Shown: positions 10,287 through 34,824 of the stretch, piece after piece
Layout: every line of letters begins with the position of its first letter
How positions within the stretch are numbered: position 1 is the stretch's first letter
Assembly (NCBI GenBank): GCA_964446635.1
Contig: CAYUPJ010000011.1
Location: 1 to 38,957 of the forward strand
Direction of reading: 5' to 3'
DNA from: an uncultured Anaerolineae bacterium
GTDB lineage: Bacteria; Chloroflexota; Anaerolineae; VGOG01
Length of the DNA: 38,957 nt
Notes under the pieces: generated by a model
Databases searched by the model: none
The model's input: the letters and a program-made list of their open reading frames with translations, nothing else
What the model was told of the DNA's origin: nothing
Translations under genes and position numbers: made by a program

Positions 10287-10368
10287 CGTGAAACGTGAAA
10301 ACCTGAAACGTGAAACGTGAAAACGTGTTACATGAAAAGCAGTTCGCGTTTCACGCTTCACGTTTGAC
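10287..10368. repeat. Inverted arrays of GTGAAAC / GTTTCAC heptamers forming a long potential hairpin in the rtcA-flp divergent region
   Basis: cgtgaaacgtgaaaacctgaaacgtgaaacgtgaaaacgtg, then after a spacer cgtttcacgcttcacgtttgacg. A TATAAT box at 10263-10268 sits just upstream. Confidence 0.7.
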
Positions 10369-11324: not shown

Positions 11325-11358
11325 ATTGTTGCCTGCTTGGGTGGGCAACCTGCGTGAT

Positions 11359-11380
11359 GCGTCAAGCGTCAAATGTCAAA
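11359..11380. repeat. GTCAAR heptamer tandem repeat
   Basis: gcgtcaagcgtcaaatgtcaaa, the same unit family as 2201-2223 and 33019-33047. Confidence 0.7.
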
Positions 11381-11941: not shown

Positions 11942-11953
11942 ACTGAGGAGGTA

Positions 11954-12071
11954 ACTACTCAGCCTCCGTTGTCATTGCGAGCGTTTTTTGCGAAGCAATC
12001 CCCAACTTGCGCATTGGAGATTGCTTCGTCGGCAAAAACCGCCTCCTCGCAATGACAGCCTGAGCAGTCAC
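11954..12071. repeat. About 100-bp nested palindromic dispersed element (copy 1), REP/MITE-like
   Basis: Outer inverted repeat gtcattgcgagcg ... cgctcctcgcaatgac and inner inverted repeat gcgaagcaatc ... gattgcttcg. It is flanked by actactcagcc / gcctgagcagt. A second copy lies at 34676-34786 with the same architecture. Confidence 0.8.
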
Positions 12072-12080
12072 CTAGGAGGA

Positions 12081-12542
12081 ATGAAGACCATACTTTTTGT
12101 CTGCACGGGCAACGTCTGCCGTTCGCCTATGGCGGTGGGGTTCCTTCGGGAGAAGCTACGGAAGGCGGGACTGGAAGAGGGGTACCGAGTACGCTCGGCA
12201 GGCGTGTGGGCGCCGGAGAATCAACCGCCCTCAACCAACGCTCGCGAGATCATGGCGGAGCGAGGCATTGACATCGGCGACCATCGCGGCCATGACCTCA
12301 CCGCCGAGGATGTGGAGGGAGCTGATCTCATCCTGACCATGGAGGGCGGCCAGGCCGAGGCCATCCAGGTGGAGTTCCCCCCACACGCTCACAAAGTCCA
12401 TTTGCTAAGCGAGATGGCTGGGCGACAGTACGGCATCCGGGACCCCTACGGTGGCCCTTTGTACGAGTACCGCCAATGTGCCAACGAGATCGAAAGGCTC
12501 ATTGAGGAGGGCTATCCTCGCATCATGCAGTTGGTGGGGTAA
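12081..12542 (+). CDS. low-molecular-weight protein tyrosine phosphatase
   Basis: MKTILFVCTGNVCRSPMA has the CX5R P-loop of LMW-PTP/ArsC-like phosphatases. AGGAGGA RBS before ATG 12081. The track start at 11988 reads through the palindromic repeat and is rejected. Confidence 0.8.
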   Translation: MKTILFVCTGNVCRSPMAVGFLREKLRKAGLEEGYRVRSAGVWAPENQPPSTNAREIMAERGIDIGDHRGHDLTAEDVEGADLILTMEGGQAEAIQVEFPPHAHKVHLLSEMAGRQYGIRDPYGGPLYEYRQCANEIERLIEEGYPRIMQLVG

Positions 12543-12546
12543 GCTA

Positions 12547-12580
12547 AAGGGGAGACCGCGTGGTCTCCCCTTTCTTTTCT
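12547..12580. terminator. Bidirectional rho-independent terminator between the convergent ptp and HNH genes
   Basis: aaggggagacc gcgt ggtctcccctt forms an 11-bp perfect stem with a T-rich tail (tcttttctc). Confidence 0.7.
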
Positions 12581-13095
12581 CACCATACTTCTATGAACTG
12601 TTGCCACTCCTTGCTTTCTTTCAGGTAGCGGCCGAAGAGGTACATGTTTGTGGCGTGGGGTTCGTAGGGCTGTTGCAGCAACTGCATGTGGGCCTCCTGG
12701 AGGGTTCGGCCGCCCTTGCGACGGTTGCAGTCCGGGCACGCGCTCACCAGGTTTTCCCAACGATGCTGTCCCCCGTGGTGACGTGGGACAACGTGATCCA
12801 CCGTCAAGTTATTTGATTGCCGCCCACAATACTGGCAAGTGTAGTTATCCCGCCGGAAGATCTCTTTCTTAGTGAGCTTCACCCGCGGGCGAGGTCGCCC
12901 GATCATGTAACCCAGCTTGATCACCGAGGGGCACAAAAAGGTAGTGGAAGGAGTGCGGATAACTCCTCGGCTATTCTCCAAGACCTCGGCCTTGCCCACC
13001 ACGACCAGGGTGATGGCCCTCTTGACGTTGCAGACATGCAGCGGCTCGTAGTTTAGATTGAGGACAAGAACTGGGGAATCTAACAGGCCGTTCAA
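12580..13095 (-). CDS. HNH endonuclease
   Basis: CQYCGRQSNNLTVDHVVPRHHGGQHRWENLVSACPDCNRRKG is a complete HNH motif with flanking Zn-binding cysteines. Confidence 0.8.
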   Translation of the reverse strand: MNGLLDSPVLVLNLNYEPLHVCNVKRAITLVVVGKAEVLENSRGVIRTPSTTFLCPSVIKLGYMIGRPRPRVKLTKKEIFRRDNYTCQYCGRQSNNLTVDHVVPRHHGGQHRWENLVSACPDCNRRKGGRTLQEAHMQLLQQPYEPHATNMYLFGRYLKESKEWQQFIEVW

Positions 13096-29190: not shown

Positions 29191-29213
29191 CTCCCTGGTA
29201 TTGGGATTGAACT

Positions 29214-29243
29214 GTTGCGTGTTGCGTGTTGCGTGTTGCGTGT
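29214..29243. repeat. TGCGTGT heptamer x4
   Basis: ttgcgtgttgcgtgttgcgtgttgcgtg. It is the inverted partner of the 29728-29783 array. Confidence 0.8.
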
Positions 29244-29727: not shown

Positions 29728-29783
29728 CCACGCAACACGCAATACGCACCACGCAATACGCACCACGCAATACGCACCACGCC
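29728..29783. repeat. ACGCAAY/ACGCACC heptamer x8
   Basis: accacgcaacacgcaatacgcaccacgcaatacgcaccacgcaatacgcaccacgcc. Reverse-complement family of the 29214-29243 array; together they flank the four-helix-bundle gene. Confidence 0.8.
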
Positions 29784-30536: not shown

Positions 30537-31380
30537 GCTTCAGAACCTCGTTCATGCTGCCGGAACGGAAGCCAGCCAGGTCGAGGGCCACGTAGACGTA
30601 GCCCAGCTCCCGCAGGCGAGCCACGATGCGGGCCCGCGCATCTTCGGCCAGCAGACGCGACCAGTCGGCGGTTTCGATCTCCAGGCGGGCGACAGGATGG
30701 TGGTCACGCACGCGGAGACTCTCCAGCCCGAACTCGGCGCGCAGGAAGGCCTCCGCTGCCTCCACGCGGTGCAGCCCTTCCCCGGTGAGCTGTGTGCCAT
30801 AGGGAAAGCGGGTGGCCAGGCAAGCCTGGGCAGGCCGGTTCCACACGGCTAGCCCTTTCTCGCGGGCCAGTCGGCGTATCTCCGCCTTGGTCAGCCCGGC
30901 CTCCAGCAGCGGGGCGCGCACGCCCAACTCCTGGGCAGCGCGGTTGCCCGGCCGATAGTCGCCCGCGTCGTCGGCGTTGGCGCCGTGGACCACGTGGGCC
31001 TGCCCTGAGCCCCGTCGAAGGGCCAGCCCTTCTTCCTGGGCGCTGGCGATGATGGCGGCCAACACCTCGCGCTTGCACCAATAGCAGCGGTCCGGAGGGT
31101 TAGCGGAGAAACGAGGGTTGTCCAGCGGGTGGAGGCGGATGGTGCGATGGCGCACGCCCAGGTGGTGGGCAAGCTCACGCGCGGCGGCGATTTCCTCGCG
31201 GGGATGAATCTCGGCGTCGGCAGTGACGGCCAGCACGTTTTCCGAGCCGAGCACGTCCAGGCACTCTGCCAGCAGATAAGTGCTGTCCACCCCGCCGGAG
31301 AAGGCTACTACGGCGCTGCCGATCTCAGCGATAATCTGCCTCAGGCGCGCCGTCTTTCGCCCATTCGCCCATTCGCCCAT
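30529..31380 (-). CDS. larE: ATP-dependent sacrificial sulfur transferase LarE (PP-loop ATPase)
   Basis: PP-loop VAFSGGVDSTYLL. CYWCKRE. ACLATRFPYGTQLT corresponds to the LarE sacrificial Cys loop (SCSVSSRFPYGT). C-terminal YVALDLAGFRSGSMN. The N-terminus is ambiguous: three in-frame ATGs lie inside the CATTCGCCC nonamer repeat. Confidence 0.8.
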   Translation of the reverse strand: MGEWANGRKTARLRQIIAEIGSAVVAFSGGVDSTYLLAECLDVLGSENVLAVTADAEIHPREEIAAARELAHHLGVRHRTIRLHPLDNPRFSANPPDRCYWCKREVLAAIIASAQEEGLALRRGSGQAHVVHGANADDAGDYRPGNRAAQELGVRAPLLEAGLTKAEIRRLAREKGLAVWNRPAQACLATRFPYGTQLTGEGLHRVEAAEAFLRAEFGLESLRVRDHHPVARLEIETADWSRLLAEDARARIVARLRELGYVYVALDLAGFRSGSMNEVLKHD

Positions 31381-31429
31381 TCGCTCATTCGCCCATTCGC
31401 TCATTCGCCCATTCGCCCATTCGCCCATT
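31356..31429. repeat. CATTCGCYC nonamer x8 at the 5' end of larE (in-frame, period 9)
   Basis: cattcgcccattcgcccattcgctcattcgcccattcgctcattcgcccattcgcccattcgcccatt. On the minus strand it encodes MGEWANGRMSEWANERMGEWANGR. Confidence 0.85.
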
Positions 31430-31458: not shown

Positions 31459-32745
31459 CTACTGGTTCCAGGCCCCTCGGCTGGGAACGTCAACGGTGAT
31501 GAGGATGGGGTCAACGCGGTTCTGGACGATCTCGACCCCCTCGTGGATCAGCCCCGCCCATAGATAAAAAGGGTTGCGCGGTGGCTTGTCCAGAATCTGG
31601 ATGGCCCCGCTGATGGTCACCCTTTGGCCCGGCTGGAGGTAGTAGAATACATCATCCCCTTTGACCACCGCCTCCAGCTCATCGTGCCGGCCCAGGGACC
31701 AGCGGAAGGGGTAGGAATACCCGGGATTCTCCTCGAAATCTATTCCCAAGCGCCACGCTCCGTCCGATTGATACCACTCCAGGGTGCTGAAGTTCTGGCG
31801 GCTGGTGTAGGTGATCCCCGGCTGCGGGCCGGTGGTGCGAACGGGGGTATCGCCGTAGTTCTCCACGGTGGCCGTGAAATACAGCGTCGCTCCCAGGGGG
31901 ATGGTGAGGGAGGTAAAGTCCCCCCGTAGCCCCTCGTTCGAGGAATACTCCACCACGGCGTTGATGATGTCGGCGCGGGGCACGCCGCCGTGCTGGATGG
32001 TCAGGATGCTCTGCTCCTCTACGCGCTGGCCCACCAGGTCCTCGGCGATGGCCACCACGGTGTAGGTCCCATCGGGCGGCGGGACAGCTCCCAGATCAAC
32101 GCCTCCCTCGTAGTCGTACTGATGCAGGCCCACCTCTCCTGGTTTGATTCTCTGCGACACCGTCTCAGGGAGGAAAACCTTCTCACCCACCTCACTGAGG
32201 AGATAGACCCGCACGGTGGCCGGTTTGGGGAGGAAGTAGTTGATGGTCACGTGGTCGTCCACGCCGTCGCGGTTGGGGGTGAAAACTGGGGGGGAGACGG
32301 AGAAGCCCCGCAGCTCAGGAAGGGTGGTGTCGGCGTCAACGATGGTCAGGCTGCCCTCTGCCCTCTCGGTGTGGCCACTGTCGTCGGTGGCCTCGACCAC
32401 CCAGGTGTACTGCCCATCGGGCAACAGGCGCCTCTTGACCGGCCCCCCTTGAGGCACATCCACCACCCCGCTGAACAGGGTCCAGTAAGACTCTGGTTGG
32501 GCGGAACGGCGCTCTCCATTTCGATGGTAGTGTCGCTCTCCGGCTTGGTCAACGAAGTAGACAGACACACTGGCGTTGCGGGAAAGCTTGTAGAGGACAT
32601 TGGCGGCATCGTCGTGCCCGTCGGCGTTGGGTGAGATCACAGTGGGGTAGAACTCCACGTCGTAGAGCACAGGGCGGGCTGAGCATCCCGCCACGTTTAG
32701 TCCTACCAGGGTCAAGCCGATGACTAACGCTAGGGAGAAGTATTT
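31459..32745 (-). CDS. secreted lipoprotein with FlgD-Ig-like repeats
   Basis: Probable TTG start gives MKYFSLALVIGLTLVGLNVAGCS (lipobox LNVAGC). Repeated ISPNADGHDD and FTPNRDGVDD motifs are typical of FlgD Ig-like / T9SS-type beta-sandwich domains. Confidence 0.55.
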   Translation of the reverse strand, partial: KYFSLALVIGLTLVGLNVAGCSARPVLYDVEFYPTVISPNADGHDDAANVLYKLSRNASVSVYFVDQAGERHYHRNGERRSAQPESYWTLFSGVVDVPQGGPVKRRLLPDGQYTWVVEATDDSGHTERAEGSLTIVDADTTLPELRGFSVSPPVFTPNRDGVDDHVTINYFLPKPATVRVYLLSEVGEKVFLPETVSQRIKPGEVGLHQYDYEGGVDLGAVPPPDGTYTVVAIAEDLVGQRVEEQSILTIQHGGVPRADIINAVVEYSSNEGLRGDFTSLTIPLGATLYFTATVENYGDTPVRTTGPQPGITYTSRQNFSTLEWYQSDGAWRLGIDFEENPGYSYPFRWSLGRHDELEAVVKGDDVFYYLQPGQRVTISGAIQILDKPPRNPFYLWAGLIHEGVEIVQNRVDPILITVDVPSRGAWNQ

Positions 32746-32997
32746 CAAATTAGCAGTACCTCCTACCCCCTCCCTCACCCTCCCCCGTCAAGACGGGGGA
32801 GGGCAGGGGTGGGGGATTGCAGCTTTGTCAGCTTGAAGTTTACCAGATTGTGGCCGAATAGTCAAGGCCGTTTTCCCGATTTTACTTTTTGCCTCAATTG
32901 GTATAGAATAAGCACCGAACTGGTGAGGGGGGATGTTAACCTAGCCATTTTGGATCCACTGATGCTGAGTAGAAAACGAAATCGGGAGGGTTAGCTG

Positions 32998-34560
32998 ATG
33001 AAAGCCATACTTCCAGTAAAACGTCAAACGTCAAACGTCAAGCGTCCAACTTCCAACTTCCAGCTTCCAACTTCCAACTTCAAAGTTGTCCTGGCGAGCT
33101 TGCTGATCAGCTTGTTGGTGCTGGTCTTCCCTCAAATGCTGAGGGTGGAGGGGGCGACGGTTCCCCCAGTGGAGGCCAGCGACAATGGGCTGCTATATAG
33201 AGCCAGGATCGTGCTCAGCACGTCCTCCGATTGGACACGGCTCTACGTTCGCAGCGGGGAGCGAATTCTCAACGTCCAAACCACGATCCTGCAGGGCAAC
33301 GCCGCCACAACGCGAGTTGGGTGGAACAAGGACGAGCTCTACCTGGAGCAACCTCTGACCGACGCTCTGACCAATCTGGTCAAGGTGCAGTACGATTTGG
33401 TGATGACAGGCCTCGAGAAGGACACCCATCTCTTCTTTGAGAATCAGAAAGGCGATTTGGGCGTTGCCACGGCGGAGCTCTATAACTACAACTCGCAGAT
33501 AGCCACCCCTATCGCCTCTTGGTCCAATTTGCTTGATGTTTCGGGTGATCCTGCCAACCCCTTCTCCTTCTCTATAGCTGATTCCCACTTCACCACGGGT
33601 GGCCCTCTGCCCCAGTCCCCTGTGTTTCCCAAATTGGTCTTGGCTTTCTACTATCCTTGGTATGATGCTGATTCCTGGTCGAGTCCCGTTCTCGAGGATC
33701 ATCCTCTTCTTCCCTATAGCTCTGACGACCTGGAGGCCATCACCCGGCACGTCACCTGGGCGCGGCAGTACGGCATTAACGGCTTCATCTCCTCTTGGTG
33801 GGGTTCGGGTAACTATCGGGACATGAACTTCGCCAAACTCCTCACCGCAATAGAAGGCACCGATTTCAGGGCCACCATCTACTTTGAGACCCTCAGCGAA
33901 CGTTTTCGGACAACTCAAGATGTGATCAATCAGTTGGAGTACGTCTTGGCTTCCTACAGCCATCACCCCAACTTCTTGCGCCATCGCGGTAAGCCAGTGG
34001 TTTTCCTCTACGCGGTTGAAAGCGTGGTCAGAAACCCGGGCCAAAGCCCTCTCCAGGCCTGGCAGGCCATCCTCGGTCAAATCCGAGCCGATGGCTACGA
34101 TGCGGTGTGGATCGGCCAGACCTTTGATCCGAGCTATCTGGAGGTGTTCGATGGCCTGCATGCCTATGGCTTCTATGCCCCAGATCTACCCGAAATATAT
34201 TCCTTGGTTTCAGGACAGGTGAGGGCCTATCCGTTCCTGCAGGACCCAAACGCTGGGAGGAAAATCTGGGCGCCGGCGGTGATGCCTGGCTATGATGATG
34301 ACCTCTTGCGTCGGCCTAACTCCTGGTATCTCGATCGAGCTGGTGGCGATACCTATGGCTTCACTTTCCAGGCGGCCATCCAGTCCCAGGCCGATTGGAT
34401 TGTCATCACCAGCTTCAACGAGTGGTGGGAGCATACCCACATTGAGCCCAGCGAACGCCACGGTTTTACTTACCTTGAGCTGACCAAGCAATGGTCAGAC
34501 ACCTTTCTAGCAGGAGCTCTTCACCCCGTTCTCCTGCCCATACTCACCAAGAACTGGTAA
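32998..34560 (+). CDS. secreted TIM-barrel glycoside hydrolase-like protein (GH99-like YYPWY motif)
   Basis: GGGAGGG RBS 7 nt before ATG 32998. A long basic n-region is encoded by heptamer repeats, followed by the hydrophobic stretch VVLASLLISLLVLVFP. Core has AFYYPWYDADSW...GINGFISSWWGSG. Confidence 0.45.
   Translation: MKAILPVKRQTSNVKRPTSNFQLPTSNFKVVLASLLISLLVLVFPQMLRVEGATVPPVEASDNGLLYRARIVLSTSSDWTRLYVRSGERILNVQTTILQGNAATTRVGWNKDELYLEQPLTDALTNLVKVQYDLVMTGLEKDTHLFFENQKGDLGVATAELYNYNSQIATPIASWSNLLDVSGDPANPFSFSIADSHFTTGGPLPQSPVFPKLVLAFYYPWYDADSWSSPVLEDHPLLPYSSDDLEAITRHVTWARQYGINGFISSWWGSGNYRDMNFAKLLTAIEGTDFRATIYFETLSERFRTTQDVINQLEYVLASYSHHPNFLRHRGKPVVFLYAVESVVRNPGQSPLQAWQAILGQIRADGYDAVWIGQTFDPSYLEVFDGLHAYGFYAPDLPEIYSLVSGQVRAYPFLQDPNAGRKIWAPAVMPGYDDDLLRRPNSWYLDRAGGDTYGFTFQAAIQSQADWIVITSFNEWWEHTHIEPSERHGFTYLELTKQWSDTFLAGALHPVLLPILTKNW
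33019..33085. repeat. CGTCAAA x3 followed by CAACTTC/CAGCTTC x5 heptamers inside the 5' end of the GH99-like gene
   Basis: aacgtcaaacgtcaaacgtcaagcgtc caacttccaacttccagcttccaacttccaacttcaaag. Confidence 0.8.
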
Positions 34561-34675
34561 ATCGGGAAACTGGGAAACTGGTAAATTGGGACACGATTCA
34601 CCAACCTACCAATTTACCAATCTGCCAATCTACCAACCTACCAATTTACCAATCTACCAATTTACCAATCTACCG
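34553..34675. repeat. GGAAACT/GGTAAAT heptamers then ACCAAYYT octamer x9, an inverted pair
   Basis: actggtaaatcgggaaactgggaaactggtaaattggg ... accaacctaccaatttaccaatctgccaatctaccaacctaccaatttaccaatctaccaatttaccaatctacc. ggtaaattgg is the reverse complement of ccaatttacc. Confidence 0.8.
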
Positions 34676-34786
34676 TAACTACTCAGGCTGTCATTGCGAG
34701 CGAAGCGAAGCAATCCCCAAGCCGCAAGGAGGAGATTGCTTCGTCGCAAGAAACGCTCCTCGCAATGACACGGGCTGAGCAGTTAC
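34676..34786. repeat. About 100-bp nested palindromic dispersed element (copy 2)
   Basis: taactactcaggctgtcattgcgagcgaagcgaagcaatccccaagccgcaaggaggagattgcttcgtcgcaagaaacgctcctcgcaatgacacgggctgagcagtta has the same outer and inner stems and the same flanking ctcagc/gctgag as copy 1. Confidence 0.8.
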
Positions 34787-34824
34787 AATCTACCAGTCTA
34801 CCAACTAAGTGGAGGCTTAACTAG

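Follow-up and report, generated by a model that had tools for sequence, protein, structure and literature searches.

Correia elements carry a TA target duplication. These repeats of Neisseria are the best-studied bacterial MITE, and their hairpin is cleaved by RNase III (review PMC10969869). The CGTC-tagged REPs described by Di Nocera, De Gregorio and Rocco (2013) include dRS3 of Neisseria and have stems of 8-9 bp, starting with an A-T and a T-A pair, with loops of 4-5 nt; that paper found no transposase linked to them (PMC3733652). Among the insertion sequences, ISDge4 of Deinococcus geothermalis belongs to the ISBst12 group of the IS66 family. Its terminal repeats are GTGACTACTCAGCA / GTAACTGCTCAGCA, its direct repeat is 8 bp long and its single gene codes for a 449-aa transposase; transposition of the element has been seen (PMC12898284). 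IS66 elements generally have ends that start with GTAAGCG, and 8-bp direct repeats (PMC11946415).

The two elements analysed here lie in a complete contig of 38,957 bp, hereafter the window, from an Anaerolineae (Chloroflexota) metagenome-assembled genome (MAG). They resemble Correia elements in being MITEs of about 100-150 bp, often co-transcribed with their neighbours and forming a long hairpin, which is a functional analogy only. Their ends and host phylum are different. With REPINs they share short palindromic doublets, a hairpin of about 100 nt, an intergenic location and a multi-copy nature. However, REPINs have a GTAG head, no terminal repeats, no target duplication and a linked Y1 transposase (RAYT), none of which is true of the present elements. 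The closest match is found in the ISBst12-group insertion sequences, which have the same ends, GTAACTRCTCAG(CC), with 12 of 12 bases matched by the two ISDge4 ends between them. ISDge4, the ISGka4-family element of pHTA426 and the metagenomic element L378 also have an 8-bp target duplication as in the window. These insertion sequences are 1.5-1.6 kb long with one gene of about 480 aa, whereas the window elements are 112-121 bp long without a transposase gene, and beyond about 15 nt there is zero similarity to the element interior. The elements are very probably MITEs with ends GTAACTRCTCAG(CC), mobilised in trans by a single-gene IS66 DDE transposase of the ISBst12 type, with an interior that is cargo.

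Architecture of the two elements

The original prediction had described a nested-palindrome element at two sites of the window. Its right ends (12071 and 34786) agree with the limits in Table 1, while its left ends move outwards, from 11954 to 11951 and from 34676 to 34675. The flanking genes that it named, i.e. those for Hpf, a low-molecular-weight phosphatase (ptp), a GH99-like protein and Lon, were recovered, as were the two read-through ORFs (11988-12542, which extends ptp, and 34491-34778). The elements have no coding capacity and the ORFs crossing both copies are spurious read-through. They are short non-coding MITEs, well under 500 bp.

Aligned to each other, the two copies are 79% identical. 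They have three nested inverted repeats in common: an outer pair GTAACTACTCAG … CTGAGCAGT(T/C)AC, a middle pair GTCATTGCGAG … CTCGCAATGAC and an inner pair GCGAAGCAATC … GATTGCTTCGT. Within the window, each of these stem motifs is confined to the two elements. The middle pair gives 4 matches against 0.88 expected, a number attained by 1 of 100 shuffled sequences, and GCGAAGCAATC with its partner gives 4 against 0.67, attained by 0 of 100. For the outermost 12-nt inverted repeat, GTAACTRCTCAG / CTGAGYAGTYAC, 4 matches compare with 0.16 expected. All stems named in the prediction were found, well above shuffled sequence, and the ctcagcc/gctgagcagt sequences that it had taken for half-sites belong to this longer outermost repeat.

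Table 1. Coordinates of the two elements and their parts in the window
Feature	Position	Strand	Sequence or comment
Left target duplication, copy 1	11943-11950	.	CTGAGGAG; 4/8 against the right copy without gaps
MITE copy 1	11951-12071	+	121 bp; 121-bp subfamily; hpf-ptp intercistronic spacer; limits set by the terminal repeats
Left terminal inverted repeat, copy 1	11951-11962	+	GTAACTACTCAG; matches ISDge4 repeats GTGACTACTCAGCA / GTAACTGCTCAGCA
Interior cargo, copy 1	11971-12056	.	Head-to-head doublet, REP-like TGTC-ATTGC…GCAAT-CC; inner arms 11990-12000 and 12019-12029
Right terminal inverted repeat, copy 1	12060-12071	-	Reverse complement GTGACTGCTCAG
Right target duplication, copy 1	12072-12079	.	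CTAGGAGG
Left target duplication, copy 2	34667-34674	.	AATCTACC; 8/8 identical to 34787-34794
MITE copy 2	34675-34786	+	112 bp; 112-bp subfamily; within the (ACCAATCT)n octamer array of the GH99-lon spacer
Left terminal inverted repeat, copy 2	34675-34686	+	GTAACTACTCAG
Interior cargo, copy 2	34690-34769	.	REP-like head-to-head doublet; inner arms 34705-34715 and 34734-34744
Right terminal inverted repeat, copy 2	34775-34786	-	Reverse complement GTAACTGCTCAG, continuing CCC
Right target duplication, copy 2	34787-34794	.	AATCTACC
Stem GTCATTGCGAG / CTCGCAATGAC, both copies	11971-81 / 12046-56 and 34690-700 / 34759-69		

Target duplications, empty sites and related ends

Terminal repeats with an 8-bp duplication, empty orthologous sites, many near-identical copies and identical ends on autonomous IS66-type elements are all observed. 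Copy 2 has a perfect duplication (Table 1). That of copy 1 reaches only 4/8 without gaps and is therefore decayed or altered by indels; on manual reading, CTGAGGAG / CTAGGAGG give 7 matches with one gap in each copy. As such, this poor duplication counts against an IS66-type MITE. From its right copy, ptp now gets its Shine-Dalgarno sequence, AGGAGG, which lies one base upstream of the start codon at 12081.

Orthologous spacers of relatives lack both insertions. In L002 (Lon 94% identical) the GH99-lon spacer is 30 nt long and the element is absent; in L001 (Lon 93% identical) it is also absent and the (ACCAATCT)n octamer array is kept. Deleting 34675-34786 plus one AATCTACC restores the register of this array in the window. 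In the hpf-ptp spacer of L242-L246 (ptp 83-85% identical), copy 1 is absent and either a 30-nt spacer or another palindromic insertion is present. Both window copies are recent, lineage-specific insertions in an uncultured Anaerolineae population.

The terminal repeats GTAACTRCTCAG / CTGAGYAGTYAC occur on both ends of both window copies and of more than 200 relatives. A scan of a genome collection, with one end plus the adjacent core motif as query, returned at least 117 stretches. Among the matches listed, most come from Anaerolineae/Chloroflexota MAGs, others from a MAG labelled Eubacteriales, from Caenarcaniphilales, Elusimicrobiota, Polaromonas and other Proteobacteria. Flanking direct 8-mers, e.g. 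gtttgatc, tctgaaag and catgaatg, are seen in 21 exact-ended elements. Across the 81 genome-set elements among the matches listed, 46 duplications are perfect and 16 match at 7/8 (62 at 7-8/8), with a mean of 6.78/8; the control, offset by 1-3 bases, gives 2.0-2.65/8 (about 2.4). A second, independent scan of metagenomes with the two ends alone as query yielded at least 122 elements of 104-134 bp. From this set 120 were scored and, among the matches listed, 64 have a perfect duplication and 18 match at 7/8. The duplicated 8-mers are diverse in sequence. Copy numbers from these scans are lower bounds from non-random samples.

The same ends are found on full-length insertion sequences. The "IS66-like ISGka4 family" element on Geobacillus kaustophilus pHTA426 is 1635 bp long, with ends GTATCTATTCAGCCC / GTAACTATTCAGCCC and duplication GACGAGTT. 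Plasmid-borne elements are present in Candidatus Chlorohelix allophototropha, a member of the Chloroflexota (1504 bp; ends GTAACAATTCAGCC / GTAACAGTTCAGAC, also given as GTAACARTTCAG; duplication AATTATTT), in Acaryochloris (1551 bp; end GTTACTGCCCAGGCT; duplication CTTCATTC) and in Paraburkholderia (1477 bp; end GTAACTATTCAGCG; duplication GCCGCCGC). Both the Geobacillus and the Chlorohelix transposase match Pfam DDE_Tnp_IS66. Via homologues of the latter, a metagenomic element of 1528 bp (L378/L379) was located, with GTAACTGCTCAGCCC at both ends and duplication CTGACTTT. It codes for a 482-aa protein with a DDE_Tnp_IS66 domain, and its ends are identical to the right end of copy 2 over 15/15 bases. 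This autonomous element comes from a metagenome, which counts against the proposed origin. When the element interior was compared with the IS ends, the short resemblance between TGTCTGCGAGC and TGTCATTGCGAGC was judged a coincidence.

Instead of only two copies with unconserved stems, a very large family was found. At least five loci in other Chloroflexota MAGs and metagenome contigs have copies 96-97% identical to copy 1, and at least eight loci in other MAGs or metagenome contigs have copies 97-98% identical to copy 2; one locus (L295) belongs to both groups and, like the window, has both the 112-bp and the 121-bp type. MAG JBAWAP01 has at least 10 loci, PHCA01 at least 9. Copies of 95-98% identity lie between convergent, divergent and co-directional ORFs and in both orientations, with context taken from longest ORFs, not gene calls. 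On metagenome contig VAPL010557016.1, at least eight such ends are found within 13 kb, an unusual density, between ordinary genes whose translations were recognised by eye as ammonium transporters, argininosuccinate lyase and a histidine kinase. This would fit a recent burst in that organism. Three longer MITEs of the family (210-234 bp) have an extra repeated module, GTCCTGAGCG(N)AG(N)CGAAGGA, within the cargo, which suggests that MITE cargo may grow by acquiring other small palindromic repeats.

No linked transposase was detected among the recurrent neighbours in an all-against-all clustering of 1192 ORFs from 117 loci, where the recurrent families are housekeeping only, e.g. ABC transporters, response regulators and sigma factors. 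In these loci no full-length element was detected: no pair of terminal repeats 1-4 kb apart has a duplication, the ORFs between repeats 0.9-4 kb apart are ordinary genes, and a search with an IS66 transposase motif gave zero matches. The 38,957-bp window has no IS66-type transposase gene, a point against the proposed origin, and viral contigs have no terminal-repeat pairs 80-110 nt apart.

In the established model, IS200/IS605 TnpA and RAYT enzymes leave no target duplication. Palindromic elements derived from IS200/IS605 have neither terminal repeats nor a duplication and insert 3' of a fixed tetra- or pentanucleotide. With terminal repeats, an 8-bp duplication and diverse duplicated 8-mers, the present elements were rejected as such derivatives. 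Since they have terminal inverted repeats and an 8-bp duplication, IS200/IS605 TnpA or RAYT, the partner suggested in the original prediction, does not fit, and the ends are of the IS66-family DDE type. From its label 'REP/MITE-like', MITE stands and REP-like applies to the interior, while the Y1 partner and the RNA role are not supported. An integron attC site was also discarded, given the core genes around the elements and a duplication at odds with such a site.

A DDE transposase (IS66 family, single-gene ISBst12 type) supplied in trans would insert the element and duplicate 8 bp of the target. It would require the ends alone, the interior being cargo, here two REP-like units of a widespread type, (C/T)GTC-ATTGC…GCAAT-CC(A), arranged head to head; with such a doublet as cargo, the whole element becomes a long nested hairpin. 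The window lineage gained copy 1 between hpf and ptp, at the ribosome-binding site of ptp, and copy 2 in the octamer array upstream of lon. The host genome presumably has, or formerly had, an IS66-type transposase, and the copies presumably persist through being tolerated.

Within the literature covered by the search, among it a 2024 review on MITEs of prokaryotes, no earlier description of IS66-type MITEs was found, and searches by literal motifs and spurious peptides returned only primer coincidences. There seems to be a large group of MITEs with ISBst12-type ends that spans several phyla and whose cargo is very diverse. This group is useful to mobile-element researchers, though unsurprising.

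The interior unit and the alternative explanations

The interior core, GTCATTGCGAG-N40-70-CTCGCAATGAC, is very common, with at least 120 IMG/VR contigs, and it is also found on plasmids of Methylosinus, Novosphingobium, Methylobacterium, Halomonas, Aulosira and Brasilonema. The REP-like unit is widespread across phyla. Among 226 units, the head is CGTC in 65% and TGTC in 31% (head base C in 148, T in 70), and the tail is CCA in 126 (56%); in the window units, the head is TGTC and the tail CCC or CTC. In this ATTGCGAG…GCAAT unit, a 5-bp stem, ATTGC…GCAAT, encloses 12 or 18 nt. Doublets comprise 61 homodimers and 52 heterodimers. A single unit folds no better than shuffled sequence (z about -0.6 to +1.1). 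The unit resembles the CGTC-tagged REPs in its CGTC/TGTC head, its first stem pairs A-T and T-A and its CCA tail, in its mostly head-to-head homo- or heterodimers, and in having no duplication and no linked transposase. It differs in its stem, just 5 bp against 8-9 bp, a comparison made with the text description of these REPs.

The ends-only set of at least 122 elements has cargo in 71 sequence clusters. Among the matches listed, the ATTGC…GCAAT core is present in 11-16 of 122 elements, depending on motif strictness (about 10-13%), and a dRS3-like unit, CGTCATTCCCGC…GCGGGAATCCAG, in five. Two CGTC-type units, ATTGC…GCAAT and the dRS3-like ATTCCCGC…GCGGGAAT, recur inside the same terminal-repeat shell. 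The shell could be a vehicle for the CGTC REP superfamily, or the doublets could insert preferentially into palindromic MITEs. It is unlikely, in our estimate, that CGTC-type REP doublets owe their spread, in Chloroflexota and some other phyla at least, to being cargo of MITEs mobilised by ISBst12/IS66-type transposases; if true, this link of shell and cargo would join two bacterial repeat classes so far treated separately. The cross-phylum conservation of the cargo might reflect a function.

A selected cis-regulatory RNA in 5' leaders or intercistronic regions, i.e. a terminator, attenuator, RNase processing site or mRNA stabiliser, is very unlikely to account for the elements. Its attraction lies in the window itself, where both copies have the same orientation, a stop codon upstream and the next ribosome-binding site downstream, and where the hairpins are very stable. 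Both copies fold far better than shuffled sequence: the + strand RNAs at -54 and -56 kcal/mol (z about -7.5) and the - strand RNAs at -68 and -61 kcal/mol (z -11 and -8). Correia elements, RNase III-cleaved in co-transcribed mRNAs, offer a precedent (PMC10969869). An intrinsic terminator for the hpf-ptp unit is present at 12546-12573, after ptp; hpf and ptp are probably on one transcript ending there, so copy 1 is probably transcribed. However, the - strand, which folds better because C-A mismatches turn into G-U pairs, is opposite to the flanking genes. Neither hairpin is followed by a U-tract, which speaks against the suggested terminator, and the gene strand has no promoter in either window copy; the sole promoter-like match is weak and lies in copy 2 on the strand opposite the genes. 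Rfam gives zero matches at gathering score for the whole window, and a permissive scan of copy 1 below that score yields nothing beyond generic hairpin hits with miRNA models. Of the doublets elsewhere, half are heterodimers in which inner pairs are broken and not kept by co-variation. The 5'-leader position, from which a post-transcriptional role had been proposed, is not general: the element is missing from the orthologous spacers of close relatives, and near-identical copies occupy all ORF contexts in both orientations. With neither terminator nor gene-strand promoter in the window copies and with all these contexts and orientations, a strand-specific RNA role is not supported. An effect on hpf-ptp or lon expression is possible and would be a by-product of the long hairpin; RNase III might cleave this hairpin of roughly 50 bp, or the hairpin might protect the 3' end of the mRNA upstream. 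The evidence points to no new regulatory mechanism, and the element is ordinary selfish DNA, not a dedicated regulatory RNA.

A still smaller chance is given to the doublet itself being the mobile unit, a REP/REPIN moved as single-stranded DNA by RAYT or an IS200/IS605 Y1 enzyme, with the outer repeat incidental or a target. The interior doublet with its CGTC/TGTC head and CCA tail does look like the CGTC-tagged REPs of Di Nocera 2013. It is widespread without terminal repeats (in the viral set, 161 of 162 cases), also in the same Chloroflexota MAGs (14 of 95 cores), and around doublets without terminal repeats no 8-bp duplication rises above the null. REP dimers nested in other palindromes are reported in that paper as well (PMC3733652). 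In the window copies and their relatives, however, the 8-bp duplication abuts the outer repeat and not the doublet, so that, as far as the window copies are concerned, this reading is largely refuted. Cargo of at least 71 unrelated kinds is found between the same ends, a GTAG head is missing from the unit, the recurrent neighbours include no Y1 transposase, and the paper itself found no transposase linked to CGTC REPs (PMC3733652). Chance similarity or an assembly artefact, considered since the window is one MAG contig, has a negligible probability, as motif counts are far above shuffled sequence and hundreds of related copies have duplications in independent assemblies.

Gene annotation and other repeats in the window

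Recognising the elements as IS66-type MITEs removes spurious ORFs; among these are the 95-aa ORF 34491-34778, the extended N-terminus of ptp and peptides like DCFVARNAPRNDT. One element adjoins the start of ptp, whose call varies by pipeline, with 137 aa in the NCBI record (P0121) and 153 aa in relatives. The 137-aa version starts at an internal Met. Such a start would drop the CX5R catalytic loop at the N-terminus, which was identified in the translation by visual inspection. The ptp Shine-Dalgarno sequence (window 12072-12083) lies just 1 nt before the ATG, and the spacing in relatives is likewise very short (GGGGAG-ATG, GAGTGA-ATG).

The hpf-ptp spacer of L243-L246 (e.g. L243 1399-1500) has a different palindromic insertion, GAGGTCTCTGACCGAGCCCC…GCCTCGGTCGGAGACCTTC. 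On both sides of it lies a duplicated stretch, GAGCTGGCGTA(G/A)AC, which is about 14 nt long and takes in the hpf stop codon. Small insertions seem to have a hot spot in this spacer.

The lon leader (34552-34591, 34596-34674 and 34786-34804) has about nine octamers ACCAATCT, with an inverted complementary array, AACTGGGA / GGTAAATC, just upstream; the two arrays together form a long imperfect inverted repeat. The number of octamers varies among relatives, with a shorter array in L001 and none in L002. Another octamer array, TTCGCCCA, at 31356-31429 (9.2 copies, 93% matches), adjoins the end of ORF 31459-32778 (-), and a third, CGCTGATT, at 2261-2288 has 3.5 copies. Heptamer arrays (CGTGAAA / AAACGTC, TGTTGCG / CACGCAA, TCCAACT) are located at 10287-10338, 29213-29243, 29729-29782, 33019-33083, 2196-2222 and 11354-11380. 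Some are inverted pairs about 490 bp apart (29213-29243 and 29729-29782). Short-period intergenic arrays seem to be a trait of this genome. Other heptamer arrays lie inside the 5' ends of called ORFs, those of the GH99-like protein and of Hpf, both of which probably extend too far at the N-terminus.

A near-perfect G/C-rich palindrome, CCCCCTCCCTCACCCTCCCCCGTC / GACGGGGGAGGGCAGGGGTGGGGG, with arms 2 nt apart, is present at 32766-32815, where ORF 31459-32778 (-) and the GH99-like gene diverge. A gene for a 171-aa HNH endonuclease (12580-13095, -) is convergent to ptp, a position that is conserved in L243-L246.
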